This document shows, piece after piece, positions 5,353-52,872 of a DNA stretch of 64,000 bases (its first letter is position 1; each line of letters opens with the position of its first letter). Where the stretch lies: IMG/VR virus record IMGVR_UViG_3300028840_006907, positions 1 through 64,000 of that record; one strand, written 5' to 3'. A model generated the notes under the pieces. That model saw only the letters and a program-made list of their open reading frames with translations, was not told the origin of the DNA and made no database searches. This stretch comes from a virus. Made by a program: the position numbers and the translations under genes.

Positions 5353-6360
5353 TTAATCTACCCATTGAATTTTTCTACGGTACTGACCTGTTACTTCATC
5401 TATATCAGAGACATTTCCTGCTTCCTTTACTATTAAATTTAATTTACGTTTTAATTCTAGCTGAAGATCATCACTTTTTATTATTTCGGGAGAAGTATGT
5501 TTCTCCAAAAAATTATTTTTTAAATCAAGCAATTGTTTTTCAATGCTCACATCTCCAACAAAATTGAGTTCTGAAAAATCATCAATAAATTTTTTAAGTG
5601 AATTAATAGTAGGGCCTTTAACAATTTTCCCTGATTTCATATTGGTGGCGATTTTATCACAAAGAGTTACTACTTGTTCACGAAGATTTGTAACAACCTC
5701 ATTGATAAAAGAACCAATCTTTTCTTGGGCCTCTTTCTGATAAACATCGTAGGCAATATTCTCTTTTGCAATTTTATCTTCAGAAACTTTTCTCATTTTC
5801 GGTAGAGCAATTTCAAATATATTCCAGGTTAAAGAGAACCTATTTCTTAATGAAGTTGTGCTTGGATAGTATGATTTTATTCGGTCAAGAAAATTTGTGA
5901 CGAATTCTTCCTCTTCGTTTTCTTTACCTTCAATACTGAATTCATGAACACCTATTTTTGTTTGTCGGTTATAGGCAGCTTTGGCTGCTTCCTCATAAAT
6001 AGGTAGCATCTCTTTTCGTAATTTGTCGTAATCAACAATCAGGTTATCGATTAATTTATTATATGCCTCCTGATATTCCTGAAGAGTTTGCAGTATTTTT
6101 AAAAATTTCTTTTTGGGTACAAACCGTGCTGAACTTATAGGGAATTTAAAACTGTTCGTCTCAACTAGAAACCGAGCTTTACTTTCAATAGATCTGAATT
6201 TATGTATGGTTTCTTTTGGAACGAGCATCTTCTTACCAAGAAGATAAACATTAGATATAGTGTCTTTTTCTAATCCCAAGTCTTGAGCAGTCAGGATTTT
6301 TGCTCCAGTCCAGAACCGCACTTTAATTTCAACTAAAACACCATCTTTAAATATATCCAT
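5353..6360 (-). CDS. DUF3150-like protein (plasmid/phage-associated)
   Basis: N-terminal VLVEIKVRFWTGAKILTAQDLGL pattern recalled as typical of DUF3150; 335 aa. Confidence 0.4.
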   Translation of the reverse strand: MDIFKDGVLVEIKVRFWTGAKILTAQDLGLEKDTISNVYLLGKKMLVPKETIHKFRSIESKARFLVETNSFKFPISSARFVPKKKFLKILQTLQEYQEAYNKLIDNLIVDYDKLRKEMLPIYEEAAKAAYNRQTKIGVHEFSIEGKENEEEEFVTNFLDRIKSYYPSTTSLRNRFSLTWNIFEIALPKMRKVSEDKIAKENIAYDVYQKEAQEKIGSFINEVVTNLREQVVTLCDKIATNMKSGKIVKGPTINSLKKFIDDFSELNFVGDVSIEKQLLDLKNNFLEKHTSPEIIKSDDLQLELKRKLNLIVKEAGNVSDIDEVTGQYRRKIQWVD

Positions 6361-6386
6361 AATTATTTTCCTATCATTAATAAGTG

Positions 6387-6420
6387 CTGTCCCTTTAATG
6401 AAAAAGGGACAGTGTTTTTT
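6387..6420 (+). terminator. hairpin plus T-run oriented for plus-strand transcription
   Basis: ctgtcccttt...aagggacag stem followed by tgtttttt, overlapping stop of 6419-7981 gene. Confidence 0.35.
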
Positions 6421-7981
6421 ATAAGTTTAATTTCCTTTTACCTATTACCTGTTCAGCCTTCATCTCTATTGAAGCTTTTTTCACTCTACGTTTTTCAGAC
6501 CATTCACGGCCTTTCTTAATATCCTCGGCATAAAGCTGTGCTGTAAGTGATACTTCTTTAGCACTTGTAACAAGATCTTCAGTGGAGATTTCCTGATTTT
6601 TGCTGAATGAAAATTTCAGAGTATCATTAATCCAAACTTCAATTTCAGATCCACTAAAATCTTTAGTGGATTTAACTAATTGCTTTATGTCGAAGTTGCT
6701 GGGGTCACGATTTATTTTTCCCAAATGTATTGAGATAATTTTCTCTCGTTCACTATCATAAGGGAAATCAACCCAGAAGATTGCATCCATACGACCACCA
6801 CGAATTAGTTCAGGAGGTAGTTTCGTTGCATCGTTTGAAGTAGCTGCAATGAATACATCAGTTGTTCTTTCAGCCATCCAGGTTAAAAGTGTTGCTAGCA
6901 TTTTTTGAGAAGTCTCATGAACATGCCCACTTTTATTATTAGGAAAAGCTTTTTCGATTTCATCTATTCGTAAGACACAGGGAGCATTTGCATCAACGAT
7001 ACTGAGACATCTTCTTATTTTCTCTTCTGATTCTCCTACAAGACTGCCTAAGAGTGCACCTACATCAAGACTGAATAATGGTCGTTCCCAAACATTGGCG
7101 ATAACTTTTGCAACAAGAGATTTCCCGGTTCCAGGAGGGCCTACGAATAGGGCACCTTTGGGAGGAAGTATTCCATATTCTCTGGCTTTCTCAGTGAAAC
7201 AATTCTTTCTAACCAGGAGCCATTCTTTAAGGTTATCAAGTCCACCAATGTCATCAAGAGTTTCTGTTACACTAATAACATTTAAGAGCCCTGTGTTTTT
7301 AACAACTGTGGCTTTTTCTCTATTAATAACATTAATGTCAAGACATTTTCTTTCAACAATGGAAAGAGAATAAGCATTCTCAGCTTCATCAGATGTCATT
7401 CCTAAGGCTGCTTCAATAAGGGAAGTATCGTTTTTGGGGTACTCTATGGAATCTTCAACTGATCTAGCGTTTTCATAAGCTCGTTGACATACTTTTCTTA
7501 AAGTATTTGTATTTGGAAGTTTAAAATCAATTACAGTTATTTCTTTCTTTAATTCATCTGGTATTGATGAACAGCAAGAAACAACAGCCAAAACTCTACC
7601 GGTAGATCTGCAGATTGGAATTATATTTCGTATTTTTCGTTGAATAAAATCTTTTTTAATATAATGGTGGAAATCTAATAGAAAAAAGATAGAATTCTCT
7701 TCCACCTCTTCTGAACTTATCCAATTAAGAGCCAACATTGGATCATCTGTTTTAGTTTTTATATCTAATTTATTTTCTAAAAGGATATTATTATCATTTA
7801 TTTCTCGGAGTTTGATTCCATCAACTCTGTCCCAAGAATAAAATTTATAATTTCCTTTGTCAAGTTTGTTCATTTCATTTGCTAGGGTTCTTATCGCCCT
7901 ATGTTCTTCATGGGTCTGTATCCACAAAATTGTATAACCGGCACGTATATAATTTGAAAAGATGTGTTCTTTATTTTCCAT
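6419..7981 (-). CDS. AAA+ ATPase with N-terminal domain of unknown function
   Basis: Walker A GPPGTGKS, Walker B VLRIDEIEKA, sensor region TSNDATKLPPELIRGGRMD. Confidence 0.85.
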   Translation of the reverse strand: MENKEHIFSNYIRAGYTILWIQTHEEHRAIRTLANEMNKLDKGNYKFYSWDRVDGIKLREINDNNILLENKLDIKTKTDDPMLALNWISSEEVEENSIFFLLDFHHYIKKDFIQRKIRNIIPICRSTGRVLAVVSCCSSIPDELKKEITVIDFKLPNTNTLRKVCQRAYENARSVEDSIEYPKNDTSLIEAALGMTSDEAENAYSLSIVERKCLDINVINREKATVVKNTGLLNVISVTETLDDIGGLDNLKEWLLVRKNCFTEKAREYGILPPKGALFVGPPGTGKSLVAKVIANVWERPLFSLDVGALLGSLVGESEEKIRRCLSIVDANAPCVLRIDEIEKAFPNNKSGHVHETSQKMLATLLTWMAERTTDVFIAATSNDATKLPPELIRGGRMDAIFWVDFPYDSEREKIISIHLGKINRDPSNFDIKQLVKSTKDFSGSEIEVWINDTLKFSFSKNQEISTEDLVTSAKEVSLTAQLYAEDIKKGREWSEKRRVKKASIEMKAEQVIGKRKLNL

Positions 7982-7998
7982 TTTTCAATTCCTTGAAT

Positions 7999-8202
7999 TT
8001 AAAATTGATTGACTATCTGCTTTATTACTAAAATTCTATTAAGGATTTTATTGTAGGATAGATTTAATTCGTTTTGAATATCTTTAAATGAATAGTTATT
8101 CAGAAAATAAAAAGATGCTATAGTATAAGTTATCCTATCTACTTTTGACTTTAAATAATTCATAATGTCTTTGGAATAATTATTTGCATGTGGCATATTC
8201 AT
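7999..8202 (-). CDS. sigma-70 region-4-like HTH protein
   Basis: ITYTIASFYFLNNYSFKDIQNELNLSYNKILNRI is paralogous to C-terminus of 8180-8800 product. Confidence 0.35.
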   Translation of the reverse strand: MNMPHANNYSKDIMNYLKSKVDRITYTIASFYFLNNYSFKDIQNELNLSYNKILNRILVIKQIVNQF

Positions 8203-8800
8203 TATCCTTTGACTTTGAAAACTTATATACTATTTGTTTAATTTTTGTAATTTTTCTGAGGATTGTATTGTAGGATACTTTTGCAGTATCTTGAATTTCT
8301 TTCATTGAATAACAATCCAGAAGATAAAGACATGCAATGAAATAAGTTATATCATTGAGTTGATTTCTTAGATATTTCATGGTTTCATCAGAGATCAAAG
8401 TATCATCTATTGTTTCGTTAAAGTTAGGCCGGGTAGTATAATCAATATGATTTTTAAGGGTTTTATTATTATTCCTTTCTTCACCATCACTATTATTTTC
8501 ACGCATTGTGATATACATATCAATAGGGAAAAATTTAGGTCTTCGTGATATTGTTCTTATGTAATGAAGGGCATAGCCTTGAACTTTATGTACAAAATAT
8601 GTTTTTAAATAACATCCTTTTGAAAGATCATATTGTTCAAGTAACTCGGATTCAGCTAGTTTTAAAATGAGGTGTTGAAACATCTCACATGGTTCAACAA
8701 TTTTCACAAATTTCATAATGTGAAAATTTAAAATATAATCAATTTCTTCTCTGTTTAGGGTATAGAATTCCCAGAAGTCAGGGTGATATTTTAAATCCAT
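8180..8800 (-). CDS. putative sigma-factor-like transcription protein
   Basis: C-terminal ITYFIACLYLLDCYSMKEIQDTAKVSYNTILRKI resembles sigma-70 region 4.2 HTH. Confidence 0.4.
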   Translation of the reverse strand: MDLKYHPDFWEFYTLNREEIDYILNFHIMKFVKIVEPCEMFQHLILKLAESELLEQYDLSKGCYLKTYFVHKVQGYALHYIRTISRRPKFFPIDMYITMRENNSDGEERNNNKTLKNHIDYTTRPNFNETIDDTLISDETMKYLRNQLNDITYFIACLYLLDCYSMKEIQDTAKVSYNTILRKITKIKQIVYKFSKSKDNEYATCK

Positions 8801-8809
8801 AATAAAACC

Positions 8810-9064
8810 TCATTTTGTGAGACCATCAATTTCTTTCTGGACATTGGTCCAATATTCATGGTCGGTTCCGTTTCCTTTAATTGTGTTAATTTTTTCTCGA
8901 ATCCTTTTTGTTTCTTTCGAGATTTGTCTTTGTGTATTTATGTTTGAAACAGCTCTGTCAGATAGATCATGTGACAGAGCATCAAATGATTTTCCTATAG
9001 CATTCATGATCTTTCTAAGAAAGATCAGTATAGCGATAAGTCCGATAAATGCTAAAAGGGCCAT
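8810..9064 (-). CDS. small membrane protein
   Basis: N-terminal hydrophobic helix ALLAFIGLIAILIFL. Confidence 0.4.
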   Translation of the reverse strand: MALLAFIGLIAILIFLRKIMNAIGKSFDALSHDLSDRAVSNINTQRQISKETKRIREKINTIKGNGTDHEYWTNVQKEIDGLTK

Positions 9065-9220
9065 GTAAGCCTCCTTTATTTTTAACCACAGTATGGATTA
9101 ATGTTAAAACATTTTTCCTTTTTATTTTTATTGCATTTCTCTTTGCATAGAGTACATAAAACCGGAGCAATTTTCGGGTGAAACCATGGACTGAATACCC
9201 GCTCACCGTCGAATACTAAT

Positions 9221-9499
9221 TCAATAGGTGTTAAAATCTCTGTTTTCTTCTTCATTATCTACCTCTGTATCTTGATAATACTCTGATTTCATTTCTCTAT
9301 TTTCTGTTTTATTACCAAAGGCTTTTTCAATAAATTCAGTTTTTTCAATACATTCATTACCTACAAAGCCCTCAGTTTCTTTATGGACAGTTTTACCATC
9401 CCATTCAAATGTTAATTTTATTTCAGGCATTGTTTTCATTCCTTTTTTGATTTGCTTCTTCAAATAGTTTGATAATAGTGCTATCATGAATAAATTCAT
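9221..9499 (-). CDS. hypothetical protein (start uncertain)
   Basis: ORF overlaps upstream gene; internal Met likely true start. Confidence 0.3.
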   Translation of the reverse strand: MNLFMIALLSNYLKKQIKKGMKTMPEIKLTFEWDGKTVHKETEGFVGNECIEKTEFIEKAFGNKTENREMKSEYYQDTEVDNEEENRDFNTY

Positions 9500-9743
9500 G
9501 TTCTTTTATAAAACCATGCTCTTCAAAAGTACTTCTTATTCCATGCATGATTAAATTGTAACGATTCATTAAGTCAGGAATTTTATCATCGGATTTAAGA
9601 ATGTTTATCATTTTCTTTCTATGTTTAATATTTATAATGATTGAGGTAATCATAATAGCAATAATAAAAGCCACAATAGAAAAAACTATTGTCATTACTA
9701 TACTTACATCTTGTAGAAAAAATTTTTGAATATTATTATACAT
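9423..9743 (-). CDS. membrane protein
   Basis: Hydrophobic helix VMTIVFSIVAFIIAIMITSIII. Confidence 0.4.
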   Translation of the reverse strand: MYNNIQKFFLQDVSIVMTIVFSIVAFIIAIMITSIIINIKHRKKMINILKSDDKIPDLMNRYNLIMHGIRSTFEEHGFIKEHEFIHDSTIIKLFEEANQKRNENNA

Positions 9744-12355: not shown

Positions 12356-13540
12356 TTATCCTCTTACATAATCAGTTACACAGTTAATTTCATCATCACT
12401 TATCCAGGCACCGTGATATCGTTCAGGTTCAGAAGCACCAGGATAAATCATTAACATATCTCCCTTACCGGCCAGAGCTTCAGCTCCATTGCAATCAAGA
12501 ATAACTCTGGAATCATTTTTGGATGATACTTGGAATGAGATCCTTGAAGGCATATTGGATTTAATAAGACCAGTGATAACTTTAACGATAGGCTTTTGAG
12601 TTGCAAGTACCAGATGGATACCTACTGCTCTGGCTAATTGAGCCAACCGTACGATCATTTTCTCAAGTTCTTTACCTGAAGTCATCATAAGATCAGCCAT
12701 CTCATCAACCACAGTTACTATATAAGGAAGTTTTGTATCGGAATTTTTATTAAAACTTTCGATATTTCTTACTCGATAATCAGCTAAGAGTTTATATCTA
12801 CGATCCATTTCTTCAATTAAATCTGAGAACACATGCACCGCTTCTGAGGGCTCGGTAACCACAGGGCATCTCAGGTGGGATAAATTATTATATGACGCCA
12901 TTTCCACTCTCTTGGGATCGACAAGGACAAGCTGGCATTCATCTGGTGTTCGAGTAAATAATATTGAAAGAAGAATACTATTTATACATACAGATTTACC
13001 TGATCCAGTTTGACCTGCGATTAAAAGATGAGGCATAGTAGTCAAATCGATTATTTTTGGATTACCAATAGTATCGGTTCCAAGTACGATGGGAATCTTG
13101 GTATTGGAATCAGTGGTAAAGATATCACGGAAACCGATAATGGATCTTGTTTCATTCATCATTTCTATTCCAACACAAGCTGTACCTGGAATGGGTGCTT
13201 GGATTCTGATATTGGATGACATTAAAGCCATTGCGATATCTTCAGTGATCTTTTTAATCTGAGCAATCCTTACACCTTTTGATAATTTCAGTTCATATCG
13301 GGTAACCACTGGGCCATGTTTAATATCCTGGACAGCAGTATCGAATCCAAGTTCAGCGATCCTGTTTTCAAGATCATGAGAGCTTAAACTGTTGGGTATT
13401 CTATTGGATGAATACTCGTTTAAGAGTCCTAAATGAGGTTTTCTATATCTTTTGTTTTTCTTCTTTTTACATGCATCTTCCTCGGAATTAAGGAGTTGCA
13501 TTACATTTAAGAGCTTTCTGAATTTTGTTGATTTGTTCAT
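12356..13540 (-). CDS. FtsK/SpoIIIE-family DNA translocase motor (alpha/beta domains only)
   Basis: GPVVTRYEL, APIPGT..VGIE, Walker A GQTGSGKS, Walker B VVDEMADLMM; no N-terminal TM or gamma domain. Confidence 0.8.
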   Translation of the reverse strand: MNKSTKFRKLLNVMQLLNSEEDACKKKKNKRYRKPHLGLLNEYSSNRIPNSLSSHDLENRIAELGFDTAVQDIKHGPVVTRYELKLSKGVRIAQIKKITEDIAMALMSSNIRIQAPIPGTACVGIEMMNETRSIIGFRDIFTTDSNTKIPIVLGTDTIGNPKIIDLTTMPHLLIAGQTGSGKSVCINSILLSILFTRTPDECQLVLVDPKRVEMASYNNLSHLRCPVVTEPSEAVHVFSDLIEEMDRRYKLLADYRVRNIESFNKNSDTKLPYIVTVVDEMADLMMTSGKELEKMIVRLAQLARAVGIHLVLATQKPIVKVITGLIKSNMPSRISFQVSSKNDSRVILDCNGAEALAGKGDMLMIYPGASEPERYHGAWISDDEINCVTDYVRG

Positions 13541-13698: not shown

Positions 13699-14712
13699 AT
13701 GAAATATTTAATTTCTCATCAGATAAAAGTGTTGGCGAATTGTTTAGAGAACTATAAAGAGGTATGGGATATAGTTCCTATAATGATGCGGATCTCTTTT
13801 GAGAATCCCAAATTAAGTATGAAAGAGATTCAGGTTAAAAGTAAGATGGAAAATTATGGGAATCTTTTTTCAAGAATAATGGCAGATTTAAAAACTGCTC
13901 AGGAAAAGAATATTGTTTTCAAAAGACCTCATAAAGTTTTTAAGCAAGCGGATGATTTGCTTGTGTTATTTAATAAGTTGACAGGTAAAAAAGAAACCAC
14001 AAGTGAGAGTTCTGAAAATGAGTTATTAGATATTGTTAATATCCTTTCTGAAAATGTCAAACCTTTATCAAAAAGACCAAAGTGGGAAATTGAAAATCTT
14101 AAGGTCATGGATGATATCGATGCCTTAATGAAGAAGTTTCCTTTTACCATTCAAACGGTATTGCAACGCTCCATAAAAAGGAAAGAAGAAATAGAGCAGG
14201 AATTGGGAAAAGGTGTCACAGCAAAAAGAGAAATAAAAGTGTATCTCGATATGGATAGTTGTATCACCGACTGTGACAAGGCTATCAGGAAGCTAGGACC
14301 GAAAGTTGCCAAAGGTTTAGCAGATGATGCTTCCGAGGAAGAGAAGCAATACATGTATGATAAGATTGAAGAGAAGGGGGCTGAGTTCTGGTCTGAAATG
14401 GAATGGATGCCCAAAGGTGAAGAGCTTTGGAAAGTGGTAAAGAAATATGATCCTGTTTTGCTGTCCTCACCAGGATTATTTAAATGGGCTCCTGGTGGAA
14501 AGAAAAATTGGGTAGATAAAAATATTCCAGGAACAACTTTGTATCTTGATATTGACAAATATCAATGGGCTGAACCCGACTCAGTTCTCATCGATGATCG
14601 GGTTTCAAATATAGAGAGTTGGAAAGAGGCCGGTGGTGAAGCCATCCTTTATGAAAATGATCCAGAACTCGTTAAATTAAAACTAAAAGAGATCATCAGT
14701 CAACCGGGGTAA
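13699..14712 (+). CDS. protein with C-terminal HAD-like 5'(3')-deoxyribonucleotidase-type domain
   Basis: YLDMDSCI (DxD-type) and C-terminal VLIDDRVSNIESWKEAGGEAILYEND; only long plus-strand gene in the left arm. Confidence 0.45.
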   Translation: MKYLISHQIKVLANCLENYKEVWDIVPIMMRISFENPKLSMKEIQVKSKMENYGNLFSRIMADLKTAQEKNIVFKRPHKVFKQADDLLVLFNKLTGKKETTSESSENELLDIVNILSENVKPLSKRPKWEIENLKVMDDIDALMKKFPFTIQTVLQRSIKRKEEIEQELGKGVTAKREIKVYLDMDSCITDCDKAIRKLGPKVAKGLADDASEEEKQYMYDKIEEKGAEFWSEMEWMPKGEELWKVVKKYDPVLLSSPGLFKWAPGGKKNWVDKNIPGTTLYLDIDKYQWAEPDSVLIDDRVSNIESWKEAGGEAILYENDPELVKLKLKEIISQPG

Positions 14713-15269: not shown

Positions 15270-17330
15270 TTATTCCACAGTGCGAACAAGTAAATATTTA
15301 GCTCCATTATATGTTGGAAAGTATGAATAATAATTTCCTCTATTGAAGAAACTTTCGGTCATAGTAAATTTTACCATTGGATCAATTACTGATGGACCAG
15401 TATAATCAGTTTGTGATTCACCTGGAATCGCATTTTCATATTTATCATTCAATCTGATCTCTCCCAGGACCACTACACCATTATTAAATGCGTAATGGAA
15501 TTCAGCTTCAGTAGAAATTCGGAATCCATTCTTGGTCAGATCCATTTGAATATCCAAACTATCAGTATAAGTATAAGCTGTATCCAATCCAGCACCTTTT
15601 GATTTCTCGTTACAGTATTTTATTGCTTCAAAGTAATTACCTAAACTGTAGGTAGTAGTATCAAACCAGAAATCATAACTGAAACTGACATCGATAGGAG
15701 GTAAAGGAAACCAATGATATTGGTATACATTATTCTGTAATTTACCGAACATGGTAGATTGATTTTTCGATTTTATCTTATACTCACCATTAAATAGGAA
15801 AAGAACTTTAAGTGTAACAGTATCCAAAGCAGTATTACCATCATCATCGGTAACCCGAAGGACACATTCAATAACAGAATCTGAGTTCATTGGAATAACA
15901 TATTCATATTTACTGGTATCTGTAGCAGATTCATCTGTAACAAATGTTCCGGTATTCCCAATGTCCCATTCCCATTTTACAATGTGACCATAGCCATCTG
16001 TGGCAGTACCATGAAGAATAACTGTATCTCCTACAACAATCATAGAGTCACTGTTATTAACGAGGAAAGAAGGTCTGCACTGTCCTTCAACAAAGGTACT
16101 CGCTATAGGCTCATCTTTGACCACTGTAACAGTTATTTGATCTGAAGATGTGTTACCATCATTATCAGTAACTCGAACCACATAGACCATATCACCATTT
16201 CTTTGTCCGGTGACATCGGGAACAATCACTGAGGTGTCACCTGTGCTTGTTTCTTTAAATCCTTCACCATTAATATCCAGTTCCCATTTTGAGATTCCTC
16301 TGCTACCGATAGGGTCAGTGGCAATACAGGTAATATGGATTGTATCATAGATACTAACAGTAGTATCATTTCCTATAATCTGTACTTCTGGTTTTGCATT
16401 TTCTGCACTAAAGGGAGGAATTTCAATATCACCAGCTATACTATTGAAAAGAATATTTGGACTTTGACCGATAAGTTTATCTTGGTTATTAAATACATCC
16501 ACATACACATTATATTTATTTGTACCTACAGAATAAATGAAGTAAACGAAACCACTATAGGTATTACTGGAAGTATTATGCCAGAGTTCAGCGGTCTTGG
16601 TACCATTGATATCATCACCAGTAATATTGGCTTGGATAAGGCTGATTGTATCAGGGAAAAACATAGGTAAGTATAAGTTTCCATAGATATCTCTCTGTAT
16701 GACAAACAGATCCGGTAGGGTATCAATCCATTCACTGATATTGGTAGTAGAGAGTACTTGGTTATCTTTAATCAGATTTAGAGTATCATTAATATCATCT
16801 TGTGATAATCTAGCAAAGACACCACCACTGATTGTGGCATTGTCCCCGATCCGGGTTAAACTTGGTTTACCTCTATCATAGAGACTTGGTGATTTAAAGT
16901 TATGTACTTTATTGCCAATCTTTAATTGAACGATATACATTTGTGCTGATAAACCAGTGGCAGGATTAATTGAATAGTTACCAGGATCAAGTTTTCGGTT
17001 TAAAGCAGTGAAGACATTTTGACCACTCAGATTATATACCTTAATAGAAACCTGAGTTTTCTTAAGAACCGGGAACCAGAGTCGAGAGTTATCATATTTA
17101 ATTGTATTAAGGGATACTGAAGATTGGTTTTTAATATCATTGGAAAGTTTTGATAAGATATAGATACCATCAGCACCGGTAGTATCAGAAATACCTTGTC
17201 CTTTTAATGTCGCAATAACGCCAAACATCGGACTGTTATTGTTGTCCAGAACCTTACCTGTAATATATAAGTCCTGGGCATTAACTGTAATTAATAAAAA
17301 TAAAACGATAAGAATAAAAGATTTGTACAT
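15270..17330 (-). CDS. secreted multi-domain protein with CarboxypepD_reg-like and PKD-like repeats
   Basis: Signal peptide MYKSFILIVLFLLITVNA; GKVLDNNNSPMFGVIATLKGQGISDTTGADGIYIL; two VRVTD(N/D)DGNT PKD-like units. Confidence 0.7.
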   Translation of the reverse strand: MYKSFILIVLFLLITVNAQDLYITGKVLDNNNSPMFGVIATLKGQGISDTTGADGIYILSKLSNDIKNQSSVSLNTIKYDNSRLWFPVLKKTQVSIKVYNLSGQNVFTALNRKLDPGNYSINPATGLSAQMYIVQLKIGNKVHNFKSPSLYDRGKPSLTRIGDNATISGGVFARLSQDDINDTLNLIKDNQVLSTTNISEWIDTLPDLFVIQRDIYGNLYLPMFFPDTISLIQANITGDDINGTKTAELWHNTSSNTYSGFVYFIYSVGTNKYNVYVDVFNNQDKLIGQSPNILFNSIAGDIEIPPFSAENAKPEVQIIGNDTTVSIYDTIHITCIATDPIGSRGISKWELDINGEGFKETSTGDTSVIVPDVTGQRNGDMVYVVRVTDNDGNTSSDQITVTVVKDEPIASTFVEGQCRPSFLVNNSDSMIVVGDTVILHGTATDGYGHIVKWEWDIGNTGTFVTDESATDTSKYEYVIPMNSDSVIECVLRVTDDDGNTALDTVTLKVLFLFNGEYKIKSKNQSTMFGKLQNNVYQYHWFPLPPIDVSFSYDFWFDTTTYSLGNYFEAIKYCNEKSKGAGLDTAYTYTDSLDIQMDLTKNGFRISTEAEFHYAFNNGVVVLGEIRLNDKYENAIPGESQTDYTGPSVIDPMVKFTMTESFFNRGNYYSYFPTYNGAKYLLVRTVE

Positions 17331-17497
17331 AAAAGTAACTCCTTTAATTTTAATGTGTATGATCCATATTACTTAACCTCAATATTTCGAGGACATTACA
17401 AAATCTTAATAAATTATACCCAGAAAATTTCAAATAAACAAGATTAAAGTTTTAGCATTTACTTGTGAGAAAGTTATTGGTAGGTACTCCTAAATGT

Positions 17498-17528
17498 CAA
17501 GGGCACCAGGAAGTAGCCAGTGCCCTTG
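17498..17528. promoter_or_regulatory. perfect 9-bp inverted repeat with 13-nt spacer
   Basis: caagggcac...gtgcccttg in the 310-bp gap upstream of the PKD gene start. Confidence 0.3.
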
Positions 17529-17639
17529 AAGTCATCATTAATCATCAGTGGAGTAAAGTATTGTTTATATTTCATTATATTTTTATGGGAAGGAATTTAC
17601 AAGAAAAATTTTGAATATAAAGTAACATGGAATGGATAA

Positions 17640-18146
17640 TTATTTTTTATTGTTTTTGATTTTTAATAGATTCATTTTTGTTTTAAGTGTTTTTTCATTA
17701 ATCGATAATGCAGTCGCAACTTTTCCAGCAGTTTTAAATTGATGAAATAAAGCTTCAATGATAACTTTTTCTTGTTCATCTGTGACATTTACATGTATCC
17801 CTAATTTCTTGATTCGAGCACGGACTGAAGACACACTGGTCTTTAATGCTTTTGCAGTATTTTGAATGTTATATTTATTCTTTTTCAGAATATTCTCAAA
17901 CCATTCTTTTCTTTTCTCAGGATCTTTTGGTTCTCCTTCCAGGTAACCATAATCGTTATCAATTCCTAAACGTTTCATTTGTTCATAAATAGTTTGGGGG
18001 GATTTACCCAGTGCTTCTGCAACTTTCTTACCGTTACCATATTGATTTAAAAGGGCTAAAAGAATAACTTTTTTCTTTTTATCTTCTTTTTGAATACGTT
18101 CTTTAAAACGTTTTTTCTTTACTTTTGAATCTAATTTGGTTGTCAT
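17640..18146 (-). CDS. DNA-binding protein with three tandem Fis-type-like HTH motifs
   Basis: KVAEALGKSPQTIYEQMKRLGI, NTAKALKTSVSSVRARIKKLGI, KVATALSINEKTLKTKMNLLKI. Confidence 0.55.
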   Translation of the reverse strand: MTTKLDSKVKKKRFKERIQKEDKKKKVILLALLNQYGNGKKVAEALGKSPQTIYEQMKRLGIDNDYGYLEGEPKDPEKRKEWFENILKKNKYNIQNTAKALKTSVSSVRARIKKLGIHVNVTDEQEKVIIEALFHQFKTAGKVATALSINEKTLKTKMNLLKIKNNKK

Positions 18147-18539: not shown

Positions 18540-19607
18540 TTATGGTTTAAATTCTTTATCTATGGCATATTTAATCAATCCAGAGAAATGTTCCAAAACA
18601 TCTGGATATTGAATTGAATTAAATATTTCATGGGATAAATTAGAATTATATTTTTGATTATCTACAGTAATATAAGGAGCGAAAGTTTTACCTACAGTTC
18701 TGTAATATAATTTTTCAAATTTATTTAAATTATTTGGAAATTTATCAACAAATTCAAATTCCTTTACATTTAGCATATTTAAAATAACGGAAAAGTATTC
18801 TTTATGTAATGGAGGATTTGGGTTTATTATATTAAGTTCTGTAAAATCTTCATTGATAGATTTACATATGATTTTAGCAACATAATCTACAGGAACAATA
18901 TTAAGAGTTTCATTTAAATTAATGTGGATTCTAATTGGCATATCCATTTTATATCTATAAAAAAAGTATGCCCAACCATAGAATACATCAAATTTTAAAG
19001 TAATATATAAAGGGAAATCAATTAAACGACCACAGATAACTGAAGGTCGTAATATCTGATAATGAATATTATATTTTTTACAATAACTTGATATATATGT
19101 TTCCATAGTTGATTTAGTTTCTTCATAGGGATTTCTATAAATATTTTTAATTCTATTTACAAATGCTGTACTTATATAAATAAATTTATAAAGTTTTTTA
19201 CTATCGATATTATTTATCAAATTTATAGTTCCCAAATTATTATTTAATAAAAGTTCTTGTTCTGTAGCTTTATCTGTCATTAAATTTGTTGAAGCGGCAC
19301 AATGTATTACTGTCAATTTCTTAGTATCAATATTAGAAATTATATGAAATAATTCTTTACAATTTAAATGACATGGGATAATTTGAAACCTTTCTTTAAG
19401 TATATTTATTGAATATTTCTTTATGAATTCTGGAATATTTTCTGGAGCAAAAATATTTATGCCTCTTTCTATAGGAGTCATATTATTAAAAGGTCTAATT
19501 AATAAAAAAAGTTTAGATGATGAATTATATCTAATAATTTTTTCAAGCAATTCAAAAAAGATATGACTACCTAATAGACCTGTAACGCCTGTAATTAAAT
19601 AATCCAT
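18540..19607 (-). CDS. NAD(P)-binding epimerase/thioester-reductase-like protein
   Basis: N-terminal ITGVTGLLGSH Rossmann motif, YISTAFV, YEETK (YxxxK). Confidence 0.55.
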   Translation of the reverse strand: MDYLITGVTGLLGSHIFFELLEKIIRYNSSSKLFLLIRPFNNMTPIERGINIFAPENIPEFIKKYSINILKERFQIIPCHLNCKELFHIISNIDTKKLTVIHCAASTNLMTDKATEQELLLNNNLGTINLINNIDSKKLYKFIYISTAFVNRIKNIYRNPYEETKSTMETYISSYCKKYNIHYQILRPSVICGRLIDFPLYITLKFDVFYGWAYFFYRYKMDMPIRIHINLNETLNIVPVDYVAKIICKSINEDFTELNIINPNPPLHKEYFSVILNMLNVKEFEFVDKFPNNLNKFEKLYYRTVGKTFAPYITVDNQKYNSNLSHEIFNSIQYPDVLEHFSGLIKYAIDKEFKP

Positions 19608-33873: not shown

Positions 33874-34542
33874 TCAACATGCCCTCTCTGAATAAATATT
33901 ATAATTCTCAGGTAAGTTTATCGGAACCTCCTGAAACAACTCATCAATAGCCTTCTCCGCTGTAATAGTATCATAAAAGTAGATGTCCTCTACTTCCTGC
34001 TCTAAATCCTCAGCATCCATATCACTCTCCGATAAATCCTCCCTACGAGATACCCTAACTTTAAATAACTTCACTTCATATTTCGATACCAACAAATCCG
34101 GGAAATCATCAGGGTCACCCAATACAATAACAAAAACATTCTTTAAATCATATGCCTCATAATCTATCCAGATACACTCCTGATGAAGGTATCCCCGAAA
34201 CCGAATACCTTTTACAATTGCACCACACTCTATGTAAGGTGCCATCTTAACATCACTAACCTTCTCAAGACTCTCATCCATACGGGCACAACTATTTATA
34301 ATATTACCCTTGTAACCATCATTGTATCTTAATACAACCTCCATAGTACGATCAGGACTAATATCAGCATCAAAGTCAAAATGAAAATCCACCAACAAAC
34401 TTAAACGCTCATACTCAGTTCCCGATCTAAATTTAACCAACCTAATTTTATCAATCTCGGAACCAACAGGCAATGAATTTAATAAATCCTTATCACCTAT
34501 CTTATAGCCACGACTACCATCTGCACTTATATTAACTCTCAT
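33874..34542 (-). CDS. hypothetical protein
   Basis: 222-aa ORF. Confidence 0.5.
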   Translation of the reverse strand: MRVNISADGSRGYKIGDKDLLNSLPVGSEIDKIRLVKFRSGTEYERLSLLVDFHFDFDADISPDRTMEVVLRYNDGYKGNIINSCARMDESLEKVSDVKMAPYIECGAIVKGIRFRGYLHQECIWIDYEAYDLKNVFVIVLGDPDDFPDLLVSKYEVKLFKVRVSRREDLSESDMDAEDLEQEVEDIYFYDTITAEKAIDELFQEVPINLPENYNIYSERAC

Positions 34543-34544
34543 AA

Positions 34545-34901
34545 TTACATTTCCTCCTCTATATATCTCCTTGCTTCATCTTCACTCTTAAAATAAAAAG
34601 TCGTTATATCCTTCAATTTTTTAATACGCCACTTCTTATCCTTATGATGAAATATCCTACCCTCTGAATCAACGATATAATAATAAGTCGAAGCAGCTCT
34701 ACCAAATCCATCAGGTAAATATTGATTACTAACTATCCAATAATCACCTACTCTCGGATACTTATCCAAATAGCCCAACCTCTCATAACAACTTTCACAT
34801 AATAACTCTTCAGAAGTAGCATCCTCCGGGACATCCGGGATACTAATCCCACAAACAATACATTTTATCTGATTTTCATATGCCATAATTATTTCTTCCA
34901 A
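34545..34901 (-). CDS. hypothetical Cys-containing protein
   Basis: CIVCG...CESC motifs; 118 aa. Confidence 0.5.
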   Translation of the reverse strand: MEEIIMAYENQIKCIVCGISIPDVPEDATSEELLCESCYERLGYLDKYPRVGDYWIVSNQYLPDGFGRAASTYYYIVDSEGRIFHHKDKKWRIKKLKDITTFYFKSEDEARRYIEEEM

Positions 34902-35046
34902 TCTTTTTCATAAAATTCACAGACTACATAATCAGCTTTTTTTTCTTTAAAATAAGAACAATAAATACAACCTTTTCCAACTTCAACTTCTTTGTCTTTA
35001 TAGAAAGGACATATTTTTACATTTTTATAATATATCTTCAACATGA

Positions 35047-35238
35047 TTATTTACTCCTTGTTAAATCCTCAAGCTTTATCCCCAATCCACGTACCTGTTT
35101 AAATAACTCCGGGAAATCTCTCACTATTATAATCCTCGGCTTATCCTCAATCAGCCCATAAGCACTTAGCTTATCTGAACTATATCCTAAATTAACCTGT
35201 AACGATACTTTATCCATATTCTTACCTCCATATAACAT
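35047..35238 (-). CDS. small conserved protein, paralog of 33690-33872
   Basis: About half the residues identical to 33690-33872 product. Confidence 0.55.
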   Translation of the reverse strand: MLYGGKNMDKVSLQVNLGYSSDKLSAYGLIEDKPRIIIVRDFPELFKQVRGLGIKLEDLTRSK

Positions 35239-35740
35239 TATATATACCCAATTACCTTTTTTATCCAGTAATATAACATTTTAATACTATCAAATACCAA
35301 CGTCCTATATGGTGCGTCCGTATTAATCTCTATTAAATCAGTCGTCCTATATCTTTAAACTATGGTCTATATAGTAATAAACACGATCTATAAATCAAAT
35401 AACAATTTTAAGGTAATCCTCTTACTCATCAATATCCATATCTTTATAATAAAAAACCCACACATAGCACCTATAAAAATGTGGAACCCTTTAAGGCATT
35501 TCTTAAGTAACTATGTATGGGCACTGAAAGGGATTTATACAAATCCCATTATTATCTTAATATATTAACTTACTATATGTCTATACCTATAAACATATCC
35601 CCCTATATATTACTAATTAGTAATATGAATGTAATTATCCCTATCCCCTATATCTAATAACCTATAAACTATCCATTAAGTATATCTGTATCCTATCCAT
35701 ATAATAACTCTGTAAGAGAAAATTAATATGTATCAGTATG

Positions 35741-35890
35741 CCCATTACCTTGAATAGAATAATGAGTAAGTCAGTACCAGGAACTATACCATCATGAACT
35801 ATGAACTCGGAACTATGTCAGGGAAAACTTGAGTACTTACCCATTACCTTGAATAGAATAATGGGTAAGTCAATACCAGGAACTATGTCG
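35741..35890. repeat. about 48-bp direct repeat x2 (period 99 bp), each with internal inverted repeat
   Basis: cccattaccttgaatagaataatg(a/g)gtaagtca(g/a)taccaggaactat at 35741 and 35840. Confidence 0.85.
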
Positions 35891-36057
35891 GGAATTTCCA
35901 ACGAGTATTTTGAAAAAATTTATTCTCCCTGCAAAACCCGGAACCGATTTCCTAGTTCCTACAATCATATATTAATAATCTTTTGTTATCTGTATAAGTA
36001 AATTTACACAGGGTAATTGACTGATCAAAGTAAGTTAATGTCTTCCCAAACCGAGTC

Positions 36058-36141
36058 TTTGACTTGGGGAAATTGGTTGTTGACTGTAGAGAAGAATAAT
36101 TTCACTTGCTCATTTGGGTATTTGACTTGGGGAAACTGGTT
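36058..36141. repeat. 21-bp direct repeat x2 (period 63 bp)
   Basis: tttgacttggggaaa(t/c)tggtt at 36058 and 36121. Confidence 0.85.
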
Positions 36142-36511
36142 CCCGACTATCAAAAGTGGGGTTAAAAACGAGGGGGGTTACCCCTAAATTTGATATTTCC
36201 AGACTGGGAACTCAGACAGGGGCGATTCCAGACTGTTTCTGGCCAGACTGGGGGAAAGACCTAAGACGGTCTTAGTCCACTCATCCAAGACCATTGCCAT
36301 TTATCTGATCCGTAGCTCCAGACCTGGAATGACTTGGATAGAATTTTATATGTTACTGCCAGACAGAAAATGATCTTTGAGTCTCCACGTCCCAGGATTT
36401 CCTGGACACCGTGTAATCCACGGAACTCTAGGCTATCGGCTGATTTAATTTCGTTCTGAACTTCTATGGGAAGTTCATTCATGTTTATTTGATCTATACT
36501 TGTGATATGCA

Positions 36512-51572: not shown

Positions 51573-51940
51573 CATGAATAATGAAAAAAGTTTAGTAACT
51601 TTCCGAAGTTTTAAGAAACTTTTTCTTTGACGTTTGTTTTTTGTGGCTTTCATGAGTAATGAAAAAAGTTTAGTAACTTTCCGAAGTTTTAAAAATTTTT
51701 TCTTTCATGTAAACTTTTCCTTGTCTACATGAGTAATGAAAAAAGTTTAGTAACTTTCCGAAGTTTTAAAAATTTTTTCTTTCATGTAAACTTTTCCTTG
51801 TCTACATGAGTAATGAAATTAGTTTGGTAACTTTCCGAAGTTTTAAAAATTTTTTCTTTCATGTAAACTTTTCCTTGTCTACATGAGTAATGAAATTAGT
51901 TTGGTAACTTTCCGGAAAAAATTGTAAAAACGCTATTTTC
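51573..51940. repeat. 77-bp tandem direct repeats, about 4.4 copies
   Basis: Units begin at 51573 (degenerate), 51651, 51728, 51805, 51882 (partial). Confidence 0.95.
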
Positions 51941-52312
51941 CTTTATATAGGGGAGAGCCAGAAATCGCCCGTTTGATGTGCGTGATATATACGCCCGAAA
52001 ATGTTCCCGGTTCTAACCCCCCAGTGAAATACCCTTTCCACAAAAGTGAAATACCCCAATACAACTATACCATACCCGACCATACCCCACCCCCGGGACC
52101 TGTCTTCGGGATCATCATCATGCGCTTGCTTTTCGTGCGCTCAATGCCATACCCACCCCCTTTTTGTAAAGATTTTTGGAAGTTGGAAATGGATGGAGTT
52201 AGATTGGATTTTTTGGATGGTAGAAAATTTTGGCTGGTGGGAGAGACCCCACAGTAAAGTACCCGGTTGGTTCAGGGAAGTACCAATATGGTTCAGTGGA
52301 GTGTCTTTTTTG

Positions 52313-52370
52313 TGGCGCATATCCTGTTATAGTGGCGCATATTCTATTATAATGGCGCATATTTCAGTTC
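52313..52370. repeat. three direct GTGGCGCATAT boxes at about 20-bp spacing
   Basis: gtggcgcatatcctgttata / gtggcgcatattctattata / atggcgcatatttcagttca. Confidence 0.9.
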
Positions 52371-52397
52371 AAAGCTCTCAGAACCCAGTTCAAAGAA

Positions 52398-52628
52398 CAG
52401 GGAACAGGGAACTGAGCACAGGGAACTGAGCACAGGGAACCGAGCACAGGGAACCGAGCACAGGGAACTGAGCACAGGGAACTGAGCACAGGGAACTGAG
52501 CACAGGGAACCGAGCACAGGGAACCGAGCACAGGGAACTGAGCACAGGGAACCGAGCACAGGGAACTGAGAACAGGGAACCGAGCACAGGGAACTGAGAA
52601 CAGGGAACTGAGAACAGGGAACCGAGCA
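52398..52628. repeat. 14-bp tandem repeat array, 16 copies, GC-rich
   Basis: CAGGGAAC(T/C)GAGCA with T/C and C/A variants; partial copy then units from 52405. Confidence 0.95.
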
Positions 52629-52872
52629 CCTGTATCTGTGATCTCGGAAAAGTTTCGGGAAAAAAATCGGGAACGGCTCAGGGCTGAGAAATAGGTATGA
52701 ATTTTTTTGGGGTATAATTTTTGGAGTTAAACAGTTGGGGAAATTGGAGTTATCTTATGTGAGGTGATGGGATAGTTTATGGAGGGTGAAAATTTTTTGG
52801 TATAGTTTGATGGAGAAACAGGTATAATACTTATAGGACGGAAAAATTTAAGTCTAATGGTTCGAGGATCTT

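Follow-up and report, generated by a model that had tools for sequence, protein, structure and literature searches.

Among phage genes, morons for envelope and superinfection-exclusion proteins are exemplified by Bor and Lom of phage lambda and Llp of phage T5. Decoration proteins of the Hoc type lack a signal peptide and are encoded together with structural genes, and the virions of tailed phages assemble in the cytoplasm. TvpA of Treponema denticola (2Y3C), a further described protein, is a binding protein with a C-type-lectin fold, its subtype being that named after formylglycine-generating enzyme (FGE), and the target of a diversity-generating retroelement (DGR) (PMC6328139). Here, we analyze a gene for a 686-amino acid protein (the target) in positions 1 to 64,000 of the IMG/VR virus record IMGVR_UViG_3300028840_006907, a stretch of 64 kb that we call the window.

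On balance, we favor the reading that the target is a Sec-exported, host-derived envelope-binding protein of Fibrobacterota origin, that it is carried by a phage-like element of ~469 kb, and that it is not a part of the virion and not an enzyme. Its export, cellular location, binding role and expression timing, as well as the phage identity of the element, are what we infer from the features described below. The data themselves show the ORF and the layout of its domains, the homology, the range of phyla and the clade of related copies, the missing catalytic cysteines, the terminator-like hairpin and, within the sequence examined, the lack of a DGR template. A preliminary description of this DNA, made from its letters, had noted a secreted protein with an architecture typical of host surface proteins, which our analysis supports; it had overlooked two parts of the protein, a family-specific beta-sandwich (D3) and an FGE-like remnant at the C terminus.

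The target gene and its product

The 686-amino acid protein of the preliminary description corresponds exactly to an open reading frame (ORF) that starts with ATG, is preceded by a Shine-Dalgarno sequence, and encodes a protein recorded identically from six contigs that were read, from several samples, the longest measuring 469,617 bp. The ORF is real. It is the largest gene of the window, where it lies among ~140 other, mostly small and tightly packed ORFs, and 156 homologues of its product were found. The features of the gene and its flanks are compiled in Table 1.

Table 1. Positions of the features identified in and around the target gene (window coordinates; residues refer to the 686-amino acid protein)
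Feature	Position	Strand	Basis
Target gene, 686 amino acids plus stop codon	15270..17330	(-)	ORF list; ATG start
Shine-Dalgarno sequence AAAGGAG, 8 nt 5' of ATG	17339..17345	(-)	Sequence read
Predicted Sec signal peptide of the signal peptidase I (SPase I) type, residues 1-18, predicted cleavage VNA/QD	17277..17330	(-)	Hydropathy and Cys positions
D1, residues 20-62, four strands forming the first half of a CarboxypepD_reg-like sandwich	17145..17273	(-)	PF13715 and model
D2, residues 78-148, seven-strand sandwich resembling the type-A C-terminal domain of the type IX secretion system (T9SS)	16887..17099	(-)	PF18962, TIGR04183, model
D3, residues 182-312, family-defining beta-sandwich without Pfam model	16395..16787	(-)	
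PKD unit 1, residues 313-405	16116..16394	(-)	Best PF22352 stretch (320-403); model
PKD unit 2, residues 428-514	15789..16049	(-)	Second PF22352 stretch; model; aligns with PKD unit 1
Remnant of a non-catalytic FGE-sulfatase/C-type-lectin-like domain, residues 515-686	15273..15788	(-)	Orthologue alignment, custom profile
Poorly conserved low-confidence stretch, residues 622-676, in place of the FGE-like second half	15303..15467	(-)	Predicted local distance difference test (pLDDT), identity
Intrinsic-terminator-like hairpin, 15 pairs plus T-run, 34 nt past the stop codon	15204..15236	(-)	Hairpin scan, sequence read
Promoter-like TTGTTT-17 nt-TATAAT, 83 nt 5' of ATG	17413..17441	(-)	By eye; first hexamer under the rule of the scan
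Promoter-like TTGTAA-17-TATAAT, 10/12, in the 309-bp intergenic spacer	17574..17602	(-)	Scan

Signal peptide and stalk domains

The protein was modeled with AlphaFold2 on the basis of 78 homologues (mean pLDDT, 77.8), and profile matches were judged against the curated gathering scores of Pfam (PF22352, 27; PF13715, 32.2; PF18962, 27) and NCBIfam (TIGR04183, 23). The N terminus shows K3, a hydrophobic core at residues 4 to 16 and the sequence V-N-A/Q-D; a helix was modeled at residues 2 to 14, and orthologues keep the signal pattern AFA/Q. No lipobox Cys is present at the end of this segment. Since the first Cys of the protein is residue 335 and the segment ends in V-N-A/Q-D, the target is predicted to carry a cleavable Sec signal peptide of the SPase I type and not a lipoprotein signal.

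The signal peptide is followed by a row of beta-sandwich parts. D1 reached 19.1 bits with PF13715 (CarbopepD_reg_2), covering profile positions 1 to 43 of 88, and the score and coverage thus fell short of a full CarboxypepD_reg-like domain (PF13715/PF13620, ~85 residues). Homologues repeat this half-match below the threshold at the same position, and the four strands were modeled at residues 21 to 61 with a pLDDT above 90. Judging from paralogues that lack D2, the second half of D1 may come from the strands at residues 182 to 198, past the D2 insert. D2 scored 13.7 bits with PF18962 (Por_Secre_tail) and 18.1 bits with TIGR04183 (residues 86 to 145), both below the cutoffs, and the corresponding segment of orthologues reached up to 26 bits at the same position. 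It was modeled as a confident seven-strand sandwich (pLDDT ~90). No T9SS sorting domain is found at the true C terminus of the target, where the FGE-like remnant is located instead. Since D2 is not C-terminal it cannot serve as a T9SS signal; being internal and subthreshold, it is a structural module rather than a secretion signal. A floppy linker (residues 149 to 180), modeled with low confidence, separates D2 from D3.

D3 is the part that defines the family. Its sandwich was modeled at residues 182 to 308 with a pLDDT of 90 to 97 (92 when D3 was modeled alone), and it bears the signature DTL..K.GQ....WIDTLPD..IxQRDIxG...YSGFVYF...NYxVxVxVY...GRS..V.F.S.AG.I..P.F...NA. There was no Pfam match to D3 in the target or any homologue, and a D3 profile retrieved nothing from the PDB sequences. 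Among 1.84 billion representatives, this profile found just 333 clusters, in which the start of D3 is always close to one of two positions in the protein, residue 88 or residue 180; the former position is that of lipoprotein paralogues, from which D2 is missing, D2 being present in only some members of the family. D3 (130 amino acids) is thus a small, unannotated and position-fixed domain family. It is followed by the two PKD units, modeled with high confidence at residues 315 to 404 and 428 to 513; with 36.1 bits in two stretches, PF22352 (K319L-like_PKD) was the only Pfam family to pass its curated threshold.

Taken together, these data agree with the preliminary description in its classical signal peptide, which is backed by the sequence features, the modeled helix and the orthologues, and in its two PKD-like units, for which the profile and the model concur. 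The other two of its four domain calls were below threshold in the profile scans. The CarboxypepD_reg-like sandwich recurs in homologues and its strands were modeled, but only half of the profile is covered; similarly, the Por/T9SS likeness near the N terminus is real and forms a modeled sandwich, but it remains below both cutoffs.

Family distribution and host

The first ~510 residues of the target are common to many proteins that differ in their C termini. The parts found on this shared stalk include a GH3 beta-glucosidase, RCC1 and Kelch propellers, LamG, Fib_succ_major and FGE-like domains. By the names given in the sources and by a scan that took a single genome from each species, 13 of the 14 family loci are in Fibrobacterota (Chitinispirillaceae, Chitinivibrionales and Fibrobacteria) and none in Bacteroidota; the single exception is a contig binned to Bifidobacteriales, which is probably a mis-binning. 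The weak match of target residues 565 to 614 to TIGR02171, a Fibrobacter lipoprotein family, agrees with this range. Fibrobacterota are related to Bacteroidota yet form a distinct phylum. The shared stalk and the phylum range of the labeled relatives therefore point to a host among Fibrobacterota and not Bacteroidota, and the Bacteroidota-like host proposed in the preliminary description is not supported.

In most bacterial members of the family, the signal peptide is followed by a lipoprotein Cys and D2 is absent. Among the paralogues P0013 to P0120, most of which have this Cys, acidic or Thr/Ser-rich stretches follow it within a few residues (e.g., CTQTEPGGGTEN). Lipoproteins of Bacteroidota have surface-export signals that resemble these stretches, which may thus indicate surface exposure. 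The bacterial members P0004 and P0006 are located in ordinary cellular neighborhoods, which include CsgG/PEGA and, next to one of the two, a glycosidase that ends in a true T9SS tail.

The C-terminal head

The orthologues P0003, P0005, P0008, P0012 and P0122 match PF03781 with 78 to 115 bits at the position aligned with the C terminus of the target. The target itself gave no PF03781 match in Pfam at E values up to 10, and a custom profile of the orthologue heads matched it with 43 bits at only profile positions 12 to 121 of 240. It keeps the first half of the head, including the motif GFRISTEAEF that aligns with GYRLPTEAEW of the orthologues, and its last strand (LLVRTVE), the second half being replaced by ~55 poorly conserved residues. 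The model reflects this division, with a pLDDT of 65 to 83 at residues 516 to 620, values below 50 at residues 622 to 675 and a final strand at residues 678 to 685. A tblastn search revealed no frame-shifted remnant of the missing half.

The strong PF03781 scores of the orthologues, one of which is named "formylglycine-generating enzyme" by one source, would fit an active FGE encoded by an auxiliary gene for sulfatase maturation. Alignment of the orthologue P0122 with the Thermomonospora FGE showed that both catalytic cysteines are replaced, and the target lacks the corresponding part of the domain and has no Cys beyond residue 573, hence no C-terminal CxxxxC-type pair. Enzymatic FGE activity is excluded on these grounds. 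The related proposal of a cargo secreted by the T9SS, for which the Por_Secre_tail-like segment and the use of T9SS tails by neighbors in the host lineage could be cited, is not supported: this segment is internal and below the cutoff of both profiles, and such a domain is missing from the true C terminus. Together, the two proposals constitute the least probable of the explanations considered.

Among proteins of solved structure, the best sequence match to the full head of family members is TvpA (E values of 8e-21 and 7e-19), followed by an entry labeled CotH, true FGEs, PorK/GldK and PvdO; the target alone matched 2Y3C with an E value of only 0.049. This relationship raises the question of a DGR variable protein like TvpA and LdtA, in which the poorly conserved stretch at the C terminus would hold the variable region. 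The expected site of this region is indeed the least conserved part of the target, and the bacterial paralogues, like TvpA and LdtA, are lipoproteins (PMC6328139). Nevertheless, no template-like repeat of the 3' end was detected in the window or around the loci L016, L017, L018 and L020, and no reverse transcriptase (RVT) match was obtained among the 20 ORFs scanned, which included all of at least 270 amino acids. Furthermore, the target protein is identical on the six contigs from several samples, and P0003 and P0121 differ only at residue 574, upstream of the expected variable region. A DGR target is very improbable, and it was rejected because template repeat, reverse transcriptase and copy-to-copy variation were all missing from the sequence examined.

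Related copies on other elements

The closest full-length orthologues of the target are not found in cellular contexts. The element-encoded copies (P0001, P0002, P0003, P0005/P0122, P0008 and P0012) are surrounded by many small ORFs without known function, and all of them have an SPase I type signal and D2. A rough neighbor-joining tree of D3 plus the PKD region placed them in one clade, sister to the bacterial proteins P0004, P0006, P0010, P0011 and P0019. Two gene arrangements were observed. Locus L016 (P0002, 51% identity) shows synteny to the window, the two having in common the target, two small ORFs, a gene for a 337-amino acid deoxyribonucleotidase-like protein and FtsK. The second arrangement (P0003, P0122/P0005, P0008 and P0012) consists of the orthologue, two small ORFs and, where annotated, an NAD-dependent DNA ligase; in loci L017, L018, L020, L024 and L025, this forms a fixed block in which the small ORFs are of ~45 and 114 amino acids. 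The two longer loci, L017 and L018, have a gene for DNA polymerase III gamma/tau upstream of the orthologue, and three of their small genes are also present in the window. P0005 and P0122 are identical over their first 681 residues, after which P0005 ends with a different 7-residue tail, so that it has the appearance of P0122 with a frameshift or a truncation.

Identities between the window and L016 are 72% for D1, 59% for D2, 62% for D3, 62% for PKD unit 1 and 57% for PKD unit 2. The first half of the head follows with 49%, and residues 622 to 676 are at linker level (30%), the distal head not being conserved between the two copies. The 57 to 72% identity of the stalk domains indicates that the gene is maintained. 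These values also bear on the idea of a decaying cargo gene, captured from a host, that has lost its functional head and has no useful role. The FGE-like second half, missing or unrecognizable, modeled as disordered and evolving at a linker-like rate, is what decay would leave. Opposed to this are a 686-amino acid frame that is intact in DNA of 32% GC, a sister copy that is shortened in the same way and in which the remaining half of the head is preserved, a conserved final strand, and the retention of a promoter-like site, the Shine-Dalgarno sequence and the terminator. We consider decay improbable. With its head eroded, the protein may have lost its function or may be diversifying rapidly.

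Putative transcription unit

The gene is flanked by a terminator-like hairpin and, upstream, by two promoter-like sites, as the preliminary description had proposed checking for a moron (Table 1). The L016 and L018 orthologues have TTGAAA-17-TATAAT (11/12) located 35 to 46 nt before ATG, and that of L016 also has a matching hairpin terminator past its stop codon. These consensus matches are suggestive of the target forming a transcription unit of its own. The moron option of the preliminary description gains from these flanking signals and from their presence in orthologues; it is weakened by a GC content of 0.33 to 0.35, which is within the range of the window itself and leaves the gene indistinct in base composition from its surroundings, and by an occurrence that is not sporadic. 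A moron-like gene is nevertheless the best supported of the options listed there.

A Fis-type helix-turn-helix gene (17640-18146) lies across the 309-bp spacer from the target. Between the two, a GC-rich hairpin (CAAGGGCAC...GTGCCCTTG) without a T-run is located at 17498-17528 on the minus strand. It could be the terminator of the upstream gene or a regulatory structure.

The carrying element and a possible virion role

The window has a coding density of 91% and contains no tRNA and no Rfam match. The contigs on record for its proteins measure 469,617, 469,021 and 388,651 bp. Matches were obtained to an N6/N4 DNA methylase, an FtsK-like ATPase, a deoxyribonucleotidase-like gene, DUF932 and, weakly, RusA. 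A cluster at 5353-9743, also present in L001/L023, contains an AAA ATPase, DUF3150, SpoVG and DUF2997; the ATPase (6419-7981) matches phrog_8638 (E value of 2e-120) and has full-length relatives of ~29% identity in Rhizobium, Aeromonas and Mycobacterium phages. An HNH endonuclease gene is located just outside the window. The phrog_8638 ATPase, DUF932, the 5'-deoxyribonucleotidase and HNH genes and an intein in a radical-SAM gene are typical of phages. The gene content fits a huge phage, and by our personal estimate the element is likely to be one.

A phage origin would leave open a place for the target in the virion, either as capsid or tail decoration rich in Ig and PKD domains or as a receptor-binding fiber with a lectin-like tip. 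Proteins of phage tails and baseplates and those of the Hoc type commonly contain chains of Ig, FN3 and PKD domains, and FGE-subtype C-type-lectin heads serve as receptor-binding tips of phages, e.g., in Mtd (PMC6328139). The whole model matched such proteins significantly, including Hoc (3shs). In Foldseek searches of PDB and BFVD, this model retrieved nothing beyond generic chains of multiple Ig domains (complement C3, tail proteins), with template modeling scores of 0.1 to 0.2, which reflect a general beads-on-a-string similarity and are uninformative. Moreover, a cleavable Sec signal is predicted in all element-encoded orthologues, the target appears as a separate transcription unit, and its neighbors belong to replication and nucleotide metabolism, with no structural genes within about 84 kb. 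Considering export by Sec out of the cytoplasm, the retention of the signal across the clade and the nonstructural neighbors, a virion role is unlikely, including the decoration and receptor-binding roles put forward in the preliminary description.

Proposed role

The favored reading, an exported envelope-binding protein, can be laid out as a series of steps. An ancestor of the element lineage would have captured one Fibrobacterota stalk gene with an FGE-like head, which would have been retained in the lineage since. A host-type RNA polymerase probably transcribes the gene separately from its neighbors. After Sec export and cleavage of the signal peptide, the mature protein would consist of the CarboxypepD_reg-like half, the T9SS-tail-like sandwich, the family-specific sandwich, the two PKD units and the shortened lectin-like head, in this order. 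Such a semirigid stalk of beta-sandwich domains may present the non-catalytic head for binding or scaffolding in the envelope of the carrying cell, either within the periplasm or on the cell surface. Possible roles include receptor masking or superinfection exclusion, competition with surface paralogues of the host and altered cell attachment.

Several observations weigh against the exported envelope-binding protein. A Sec signal by itself delivers a protein only to the periplasm and not across the outer membrane. Half of the head is eroded (pLDDT below 50 at about residues 622 to 676; 30% identity to the sister copy), so that binding may have become weaker or different. The number of promoter-like sites in the spacer does not exceed that in shuffled sequence, which makes them only suggestive. 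No capsid, portal or terminase gene was seen among the ORFs scanned in the window and 10 kb on each side (~84 kb), neither the gene nor its surroundings had a match in INPHARED at the DNA or protein level, and no relative was found in IMG/VR by single protein or alignment. Taking the window to be phage DNA, as in the preliminary description, is plausible from its phage-type genes, but it finds no counterpart in structural genes or in these two databases. A PHROGs search gave no match for the target protein, and a literature search on huge phages of Fibrobacter returned nothing relevant.

A more specific joint claim would be that Fibrobacterota elements of 0.4 to 0.5 Mb captured a host display stalk once, have retained it and use it as a lectin-like envelope decoy that competes with or masks host paralogues, which would block superinfection or retune attachment to polysaccharide particles, the rapid change at the C terminus reflecting an arms race and not decay. 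We regard this claim as tentative and rather doubtful.

The envelope-binding reading has several implications. It provides a concrete host prediction for an unplaced element of ~469 kb, namely, Fibrobacterota of the Chitinispirillaceae/Chitinivibrionales type, and the analysis defines an unannotated beta-sandwich that marks a phylum-restricted surface-protein stalk. Related large elements appear to have retained an exported, host-mimicking envelope protein across deep divergence. This makes the target a candidate for work on the surface remodeling of polysaccharide degraders by huge phages or large extrachromosomal elements.

Other features of the window and its flanks

Two neighbors of the target adjoin it in L016 as well. 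One, at 12356-13540, encodes a short (394-amino acid) FtsK/SpoIIIE-like ATPase without a matched membrane domain; the other, at 13699-14712 on the opposite strand, encodes a 337-amino acid protein that matches a phage 5'-3' deoxyribonucleotidase over its C-terminal half. A gene for a 355-amino acid NAD_binding_4/epimerase-type reductase lies two genes upstream of the target, at 18540-19607 (-), located in the block of lowest GC content in the window (24.5%) and possibly an auxiliary gene for sugar or lipid modification. Past the 3' end of the window (L022, 13525-20546) follow, in order, a 1,514-amino acid ORF with no Pfam or PHROG match, a family-2 glycosyltransferase gene and a radical-SAM gene, which is split by an intein with a LAGLIDADG endonuclease.

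At 51573-52629, the gene orientation switches from minus to plus, the GC skew changes sign and three repeat arrays occur, with units of 77 bp (4.4 copies, 51573-51914), 20 bp (2.5 copies, 52313-52363) and 14 bp (16 copies, 52404-52629). The appearance of this region is that of a replication origin of the iteron type or of a divergent control region. GC skew reaches its most negative value in the window (-0.435) at 34001-36000, which contains very small ORFs, and there is a short strand switch at 35362-36187.

Comparison with known systems

The nearest relatives of the target are surface (lipo)proteins of Fibrobacterota, which are uncharacterized and without a family name. They are 30 to 45% identical to the target in an alignment that covers the signal peptide, D1, D3 and both PKD units, the same order of parts recurs in the 333 clusters, and some members (P0028, P0037, P0074, P0092 and P0094) have the same FGE-like head. 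Unlike most of these paralogues, which are lipoproteins without D2, the target has an SPase I signal, the D2 insert and a shortened head, and it is located on a phage-like element.

More distant systems resemble individual parts. The FGE/SUMF1 family (PF03781) has a fold homologous to the orthologue heads, with the conserved GYRLPTEAEW, and the catalytic cysteine pair is missing here. D2 shares the sequence pattern and the seven-strand sandwich of the T9SS type-A C-terminal domain, yet is internal and subthreshold. The likeness to Hoc-type decoration proteins lies in tandem Ig-type sandwiches, and the differences are the signal peptide and the genomic setting of the target. TvpA is, like the predicted target, a non-catalytic, exported and ligand-binding protein (PMC6328139); it is a single-domain, DGR-diversified lipoprotein, whereas the target has multiple domains, only half of the fold in recognizable form and no observed variation.

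Lambda Bor and Lom and T5 Llp offer a functional parallel, which comprises a mobile-element-encoded protein with its own promoter and terminator that is exported to the envelope and is not part of the virion; for the target, this likeness is drawn from sequence. The target has no sequence or fold relationship to these proteins and is far larger and multidomain. It would thus belong to a familiar category, the exported protein encoded by a mobile element, in which its architecture, D3 and its conservation across very large elements are new.

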